Positions 32,216-32,243 of a stretch of 64,000 nucleotides of DNA are shown here, in pieces; the stretch's first letter is position 1; each line of letters opens with the position of its first letter. Origin of the DNA: Escherichia coli (GTDB taxonomy: Bacteria > Pseudomonadota > Gammaproteobacteria > Enterobacterales > Enterobacteriaceae); NCBI RefSeq assembly GCF_003334815.1, contig NZ_QOWO01000003.1, one strand, 5' to 3'. The translations under genes and the position numbers were made by a program. The notes under the pieces were generated by a model. It searched no databases. It saw only the letters and a program-made list of their open reading frames with translations, and was not told the origin of the DNA.

Positions 32216-32243
32216 CACCCTCTTCCCAGAGGGGCGAGGGGAC
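32216..32243. repeat. GC-rich palindromic motif copy (same family as 5094..5119)
   Basis: Seen directly: caccctcttcccagaggggcgaggggac; its reverse complement gtcccctcgcccctctgggaagagggtg matches 5092..5120 (ggtcccctcgcccctctggggagagggtt) at all but ~1 position. Confidence 0.6.

Follow-up and report, generated by a model that had tools for sequence, protein, structure and literature searches.

The GC-rich block that separates CRP2 from MelR site 1' in the Escherichia coli mel control region is a decayed, ancient copy of the dispersed BoxC repeat. Its sequence has drifted, and its most probable role today is only that of phase-preserving spacer DNA. The block was found in a stretch of 64 kb (64,000 nucleotides, hereafter the window) whose gene order runs from alsC through phn, proP, basSR, adi, melR-melAB and dcu to beyond cad, and which shares 99.98% identity with K-12 MG1655 across the 50 kb that were compared. 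To judge from its blocks and arms, the element is BoxC by descent and not a triplex motif. The family and the partner copy in the window are already known, and the mel copy is an uncatalogued degenerate member that is ordinary in kind. The part of the literature that could be searched contains no paper that links BoxC, TMECO or PIT elements with melR or melA.

There are only two matches to GTCCCCTCGCCCCTCTGGGGAGAGGGT in the window when up to three mismatches are allowed. One is at 5093-5119 on the plus strand (no mismatches) and the other is at 32217-32243 on the minus strand (one mismatch), such that 26 of 27 bases are the same without a gap. No chance match to this sequence was obtained in 100 dinucleotide-preserving shuffles of the window. 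The near-identical match between 32216..32243 and 5092..5120 reported in an earlier note on this DNA is therefore real, and its core stands, but the lengths of 28 and 29 nucleotides quoted there are off by one. Two short GC-rich palindromes of low complexity might come to look alike by chance, yet this explanation can be dismissed with near certainty. Beyond the result with shuffled sequences, the homology runs into both arms of the repeat, and other Escherichia alleles fit the family consensus where the K-12 mel copy has diverged.

This G/C-rich repeat of E. coli was first called BoxC, then the PIT (potential intrastrand triplex) element, and was renamed TMECO by Holder et al. (2015, PMC4666352), who cite earlier BoxC papers and work that is attributed there to Maher et al. 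and Hoyne et al. In that paper, the TMECO pattern is given as CCCTCNCCC N3-6 GGGNGAGGG N3 GGGNGAGGG, PIT elements are described as exhibiting neither promoter nor terminator activity, and in vivo footprinting of full PIT elements is said not to have detected a stable triplex. The authors tie TMECO loci only to raised local variability. Table 1 of PMC4666352 lists 23 TMECO elements in MG1655. With a 69-nt query spanning element no. 22 of that table, BoxC copies are found in all 5,426 complete E. coli genomes (median 19 places, range 2-34), including 21 places in K-12. According to the earlier note, its reading would fail if the block were universally present and had no other genomic copies. The mel block is indeed universal in E. 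coli, but there are some 19-21 other places of the repeat per genome.

The BoxC repeated unit is larger than the TMECO core. In a reference set of ten full K-12 copies with their flanks (nine that were fetched, plus no. 22), a left arm of approximately GCnCGGACGGTC precedes the C block, and a right arm beginning GAAAACC(G/C) follows the second G block and is clearest in copies 19 and 21. Alignment with this set extends the mel copy to about 47 nucleotides (32206-32252, which corresponds to 4,341,695-4,341,741 in K-12) rather than 28. In the sense of melR, it reads ACTCGGAGAGTC CCCTCGCCCC TCT GGGAAGAGGG T GAAAACCGTG C, and thus retains the left arm, the C block, the loop, the first G block and the right arm, while the 11-nt third block of full copies (the second G block, TAGGGTGAGGG) is precisely what is missing. 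The right arm is identical at 10 of 10 positions to the nucleotides that follow the third block in K-12 copy 19 (pstA), GGGGAAAACCGTGTC, and it resembles copy 21, GGGGAAAACCCGCAC. The left arm is nearer the consensus in other Escherichia alleles, TGCTCGGACGGTCCCC, and reads TGCTCGGACGGTC in Escherichia sp. E1V33; the K-12 version (ACTCGGAGAGTC) is more diverged. In local alignment to the consensus of the ten K-12 copies, the mel copy scores 46, compared with 12-20 for spacers from outside Escherichia.

Features of the mel control region and of the yjdP-phnP spacer (window coordinates)
Feature	Position	Strand	Basis or remark
Full BoxC/PIT/TMECO, type A with one mismatch, CCCTCGCCCCTCTGGGGAGAGGGTTAGGGTGAGGGG	5096..5131	+	yjdP-phnP spacer; partner of the mel match
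Second, degenerate BoxC, no third block, CGCCCCTCACCCCAATGGGGAGAGGGAGAAAACGAGCGCA	5030..5072	+	Read directly; matched by two-block pattern
melR	31231-32139	-	
MelR site R, overlaps melR start	32151..32168	.	Derived from PMC2377442; conserved across genera
melR transcription start	32161	-	From MelR site 2 at -174.5 (PMC2377442)
melR -10 hexamer CATAAT	32173-32168	-	Fits melR start at 32161
CRP2, melR-activating, GACTGCGAGTGGGAGCACGGTT	32192..32213	.	Centre -41.5 of melR, placed from PMC2377442
BoxC relic, mel control region	32206..32252	-	By-eye alignment with ten full K-12 BoxC copies and flanks
Right arm GAAAACCGTG	32207..32216	-	Directly after first G block and T; third block gone
mel core	32217..32243	-	GTC, C block, loop, first G block, T; 26/27 against 5093-5119
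First G block GGGAAGAGGG	32227-32218	-	
Loop TCT	32230-32228	-	
C block CCCTCGCCCC	32240-32231	-	
Left arm ACTCGGAGAGTC	32252-32241	-	Ten full K-12 copies as reference
MelR site 1'	32269-32286	.	Layout of PMC2377442
MelR site 1	32289-32306	.	Left arm of perfect 18-bp inverted repeat
MelR site 2	32327-32344	.	Centre 32335.5 = -174.5 (PMC2377442)
MelR site 2'	32347-32364	.	Layout of PMC2377442
melAB transcription start	~32398		From 237-bp distance (PMC2377442)
melA start codon	32422		

The C-rich block CCCTCNCCC of the TMECO pattern is present in the mel copy as CCCTCGCCC at 32240-32232 on the minus strand. After the loop CTCTG there is GGAAGAGGG, which is clearly similar to the first G-rich block GGGNGAGGG and departs from the strict pattern by one substitution (G to A at 32224, plus strand). 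The second G-rich block, which would form the Hoogsteen strand 3 nt past the first, is missing from six E. coli alleles and likewise from those of three other Escherichia species. The TMECO regular expression matches no melR locus. Because the third block is missing, the mel copy should in principle be unable to form the triplex. It lacks the block that defines the published pattern, and therefore it is not among the 23 K-12 elements listed in Table 1 of PMC4666352. It nevertheless carries the arms common to the ten K-12 copies and has the dispersed, multi-copy and intergenic character of BoxC, which bears out the earlier view of the mel block as a copy of a dispersed repeat.

Among the TMECO classes, the nearest to the mel copy, with its C block CCCTCGCCC(C), loop, G block and both arms, is type A 'mm' with the loop CTCT (nos. 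9, 16, 19 and 22). The mel copy is free of indels among nine Escherichia alleles and differs in this from full copies, many of which have been lost or rearranged from one strain to another. It is also comparable with REP/BIME and ERIC/IRU sequences, which are likewise short, palindromic, dispersed, non-coding, located in regulatory spacers and decaying in place, although its sequence is unrelated to theirs. These small enterobacterial intergenic repeats are mostly without proven function. REP elements are usually transcribed and lie at the 3' ends of operons, whereas the mel copy is upstream of both divergent start points, where transcription is not expected. At the relic, an Rfam scan yields no family, and a scan for promoter and terminator consensus sequences yields no such site. 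The RefSeq annotation of K-12 MG1655 has no repeat feature at either the mel or the yjdP-phnP site.

The partner of the mel match is located in the yjdP-phnP spacer, which measures 146 bp. The full copy there is TMECO no. 22 in Table 1 of PMC4666352 (K-12 coordinates 4,314,285-4,314,320), as confirmed by the coordinate offset, and the supplement of that paper names yjdP and phnP but not melR. A looser two-block pattern, applied to the whole window, matches one further site at 5040-5055, which belongs to a second BoxC copy that also lacks the third block. This copy reads ...GGGGAGAGGG A GAAAACGAGCGCA, and its junction is organized as in the mel copy, with the G block followed by one base and then GAAAAC. 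The two degenerate copies therefore share the C block, loop, G block, single base and GAAAAC arm. However, the copy at yjdP-phnP adjoins a full copy, and many strains have a deleted or fused version of that locus, while the mel copy stands alone and keeps a constant length. The spacer (4985-5175) is structurally polymorphic. K-12-like strains carry the two-block copy and the full copy, the O157 strain AR-0430 has one fused full copy with a 70-bp deletion, and ST69 O15:H18 and MS1170 have undergone near-total deletions. There are at least three spacer states in E. coli beyond the two-block plus full arrangement of the window.

In studies of activation and repression by AraC-family regulators, the mel control region has served as a classic model. 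The start points of melR and melAB are 237 bp apart, with that of melR upstream; MelR site 2 is found at -174.5 relative to the melR start, and CRP2, on which melR transcription wholly depends, is 41 bp upstream of that start (Samarasinghe et al. 2008, PMC2377442). Only five MelR sites are named in that paper (R, 1', 1, 2 and 2'), and the DNA between them remains accessible to DNase I in MelR complexes (PMC2377442). The block is placed as the earlier note proposed, between the two divergent promoters of melR and melAB, with the melR start codon at 32139 (minus strand) on one side and that of melA on the other. More precisely, the relic sits between CRP2 and MelR site 1'. Counted from the melR start it covers -46 to -91, and counted from the melAB start it covers -146 to -192. 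The core half-sites of CRP2 are TGCGA (32195-32199) and GCACG (32206-32210), and the right arm of the relic covers CRP2 positions 16-22, which is the distal edge of the site.

For MelR site 1', placement was by a centre that we take to be at -120.5; it and the centres assumed for sites 2' and R come from the MelR literature. These centre positions agree with the layout in PMC2377442. A perfect 16-bp inverted repeat had been noted at 32291..32342. It exists, but the perfect arms are 18 bp long (32289-32306 and 32327-32344) and correspond to MelR sites 1 and 2, as identified from PMC2377442. A 42-nt imperfect inverted repeat (32265-32306 and 32327-32368) mirrors the symmetric layout of the pairs 1'-1 and 2-2'. 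In the same area (32252-32378) there are sub-threshold matches to the Rfam plant microRNA models MIR5185 and MIR1882, at 22-27 bits compared with gathering scores above 100. These matches are spurious and are caused by the inverted repeat of sites 1'-1 and 2-2', not by the relic.

Among 80 melR loci, taken from a set with one genome per GTDB species, relic-like sequence is found only in the Escherichia entries, where scores range from 13 to 21 compared with 11 or less in all other genera. These entries are E. whittamii, Escherichia sp. E1V33 and a species representative labelled E. coli SCPM-O-B-8794. When nine Escherichia alleles are aligned (six from E. coli and three from other species), the relic is present in all of them and there are no indels. 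A MAFFT alignment covered Escherichia, Citrobacter, Salmonella, Kluyvera, Cedecea and Dryocola. Site R and the -10 region align across these genera, as do CRP2 in its proximal half and MelR sites 1', 1, 2 and 2', whereas positions 32210-32258 have no counterpart outside Escherichia. Approximately 49 unalignable nucleotides in Escherichia stand against approximately 37 in its relatives, and the distance from site R to site 1' is 12 bp longer.

On its melR side, the unalignable segment has its boundary immediately past GCAC. In other genera, this place is occupied by (A/G)CACA, followed by AAAACC and AT-rich sequence such as TTATTATAGATAGTAG, while Escherichia has GCACG followed by the GC-rich BoxC sequence. 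Because GCAC is common to the ancestral CRP half-site ((A/G)CACA) and to the BoxC arm, its origin cannot be assigned to either source. Between Escherichia species, the relic segment differs by 13-34%, compared with 11-22% at third codon positions of melR and melA. The relic thus drifts at or above the synonymous rate, which is about neutral between species of the genus.

The length of the spacer was measured at 43 loci as the distance between anchors for site R and site 1'. The distance is 104-106 bp at 23 loci and 117 bp at the three loci from Escherichia species, as it is in the window. Shorter distances of 93-95 bp, 84-85 bp and 72-73 bp are found at four, four and three loci, respectively, and the single value of 204 bp is an anchor mis-hit at a locus with an inconsistent order of sites. 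Across enterobacterial genera, the distance therefore moves in steps of approximately 10-12 bp, or about one helical turn, which is relevant to comparison and engineering of mel promoters. MelR repression is known to depend on helical phasing: constructs with 5 bp removed (delta-5) or added (+5) reduce MelR-dependent repression, a delta-10 construct keeps it, and +41 and +91 constructs restore it at least partly (PMC2377442). The stepwise spacer lengths fit these published construct results. A simple insertion into a short, 73-type ancestral spacer was considered, since the sums fit (5 + 44 = 49 nt). However, the nearest relatives listed, Citrobacter and Salmonella, have the 105-type spacer, so this is only a curiosity.

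These comparisons suggest the following history. A single insertion-plus-deletion event in an ancestor of Escherichia would have placed BoxC into the spacer between CRP2 and site 1', where it would have replaced about 37 nt of ancestral spacer for a net gain of 12 bp, roughly one helical turn. The junction of this putative event falls on the GCAC shared with the ancestral CRP2 half-site, and the third block may have been lost at insertion or may never have been there. The change presumably survived because a spacing shift of about one helical turn is tolerated by the MelR repression complex. Because 12 bp were added and not 10.5, helical phase is held only roughly. The sequence would have been drifting since then without constraint, and the relic would now do no more than fix how far, and at what helical phase, site R/CRP2 lies from sites 1', 1 and 2, with no sequence-specific function.

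The 361-bp mel control region is found in 5,401 of the 5,426 complete E. coli genomes, and with at least 80% coverage in 5,399. Six E. coli alleles picked across the range of identity are the same length and align without a gap. Thus, the comparison of strains for presence or absence of the block, which had been suggested previously, reveals no polymorphism in these samples. At NZ_CP043487.1 (E. coli AQ15), only 42% of the control-region query is matched (window 32120-32269), and the neighbour of melR codes for a hypothetical protein in place of melA, which points to a rearrangement or insertion directly past the relic.

About 1,011 of the 5,401 genomes (approximately 19%) carry a control-region allele that is only 80-90% identical, and its differences cluster at 32210-32262 (21 of 53 positions) and in the spacer between MelR sites 1 and 2 (32307-32326, 8 of 20 positions). 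The coding flanks of this divergent allele differ by 2-5%, its CRP2 changes are confined to the 6-nt spacer between the half-sites, and its relic segment is farther off than the relic segments of other Escherichia species. Less divergent alleles have 5-7 changes in the 53-nt relic segment, compared with 0 to 2 in flanks of about 240 nucleotides. In all, the relic is 9-40% diverged within E. coli while flanking coding sequence is 0-5% diverged, and the flanking MelR and CRP sites are almost unchanged. Relic variability within the species is well above that of the flanks, and pure neutral drift does not explain such an excess. The excess and the divergent allele could reflect imported DNA, relaxed constraint or the repeat-linked instability discussed by Holder et al. 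The divergent allele was also considered as a separate conversion from a type B TMECO. This idea was dropped as the scores do not split the types: against all listed TMECO types, the best are type A mm and type B mm (17 each), and several of both types score 15.

The same variability bears on the proposal, made in the earlier note, that the block could act as a protein-binding site or alter DNA bending. A selected role of this kind in mel regulation is highly improbable, even though the relic is located inside the region that is compacted in the repression complex of four MelR proteins (PMC2377442). It has diverged by up to 40% in a species that preserves the sites on both sides of it, and all other genera keep the same MelR and CRP arrangement without the block. 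DNA between the MelR sites is accessible to DNase I, and repression needs helical phasing and not the sequence of the block (PMC2377442). The lack of promoter or terminator activity reported for PIT elements in PMC4666352 points the same way. Moreover, the predicted hairpin is no better than that of shuffled sequence. Folded as single-stranded DNA with tools that model hairpins only, the mel copy gives -8.2 and -9.3 kcal/mol (z = -0.8 and -1.2), the divergent E. coli allele gives z = -0.08, and a full BoxC copy reaches -14 kcal/mol.

Another explanation for the variability is that the palindrome of C and G blocks adopts a hairpin, a cruciform or some other non-B structure, which would affect supercoiling, promoter coupling or mutation rate and would turn the relic into a hot spot of mutation, like that proposed for TMECO loci. 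The relic is the most variable part of the control region (5 of 53 positions against 0-2 of about 240 in the flanks, and 21 of 53 in the divergent allele), deletions have occurred between and within the full copies at yjdP-phnP, and raised variability around TMECO loci is described by Holder et al. (PMC4666352). We nevertheless regard this explanation as quite improbable. The third block needed for a triplex is absent in all Escherichia alleles, the hairpin that is left is weak (-8 to -9 kcal/mol), and PMC4666352 offers no in vivo evidence for a stable triplex even in full elements. In addition, the CRP1 spacer (32307-32326) is equally variable and carries no BoxC sequence, so relaxed constraint or recombination explains the variability as well.

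A further alternative, which we consider unlikely but less so than the structural one, is that the insertion was exapted by rebuilding the upstream melR promoter, such that it would tune melR expression in Escherichia, probably downward. The right arm would provide the distal flank and part of the distal CRP2 half-site, and the GC-rich body would have replaced an AT-rich stretch from -55 to -90. The alpha-CTD of RNA polymerase binds upstream of class II CRP sites. Consistent with this alternative, GAAAACCGTG (32216-32207) covers CRP2 positions 16-22, other genera have AT-rich DNA where Escherichia has GC-rich BoxC, and melR transcription is fully CRP2-dependent (PMC2377442). However, GCAC is held in common with the ancestral sequence and the core half-site may predate the insertion. 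The lack of conservation of the relic within E. coli also speaks against selection for a sequence-specific role.

Our preferred reading, a drifted relic that acts as spacer DNA, leaves room for some influence on melR. An effect on melR promoter strength in Escherichia is possible, because the right arm reaches into the outer part of CRP2, or itself provides it, and because the zone upstream of a class II CRP site lies within the relic. A broader claim, to which we give an equally low likelihood as to exaptation, is that the BoxC insertion rewired the mel regulatory region by replacing AT-rich DNA, giving CRP2 its outer edge and lengthening the MelR repression complex by one turn. If this were true, autoregulation of melR and its dependence on CRP would differ measurably between Escherichia and Salmonella or Citrobacter, and the divergent allele, present in about 19% of E. 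coli genomes, would represent a second functional variant.

The mel copy reveals no new kind of element or mechanism. It does show that some 47 bp of the mel spacer, abutting CRP2, are a genus-specific fossil of a mobile-looking repeat, which is useful to know when alleles are compared or promoters are engineered. Catalogues that rely on the strict three-block triplex pattern overlook decayed two-block copies of BoxC, and there are two of these in the 64-kb window alone.

Two other repeats in the window deserve mention. The yjdN-yjdM spacer (16616-16895) contains a tandem array with a 100-bp unit of REP-type palindromes (BIME-like) in 2.8 copies. MG1655 has three more copies (300 bp), and these three extra 100-bp units account for the coordinate shift between the window and MG1655. 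The core promoters of melR and melAB (32152-32178 and 32381-32407) form a 27-nt imperfect inverted repeat that is 74% complementary. Each of them carries CCTGCCAT(A/G)AT... on its own transcribed strand, which gives the two divergent promoters the look of an inverted duplication.
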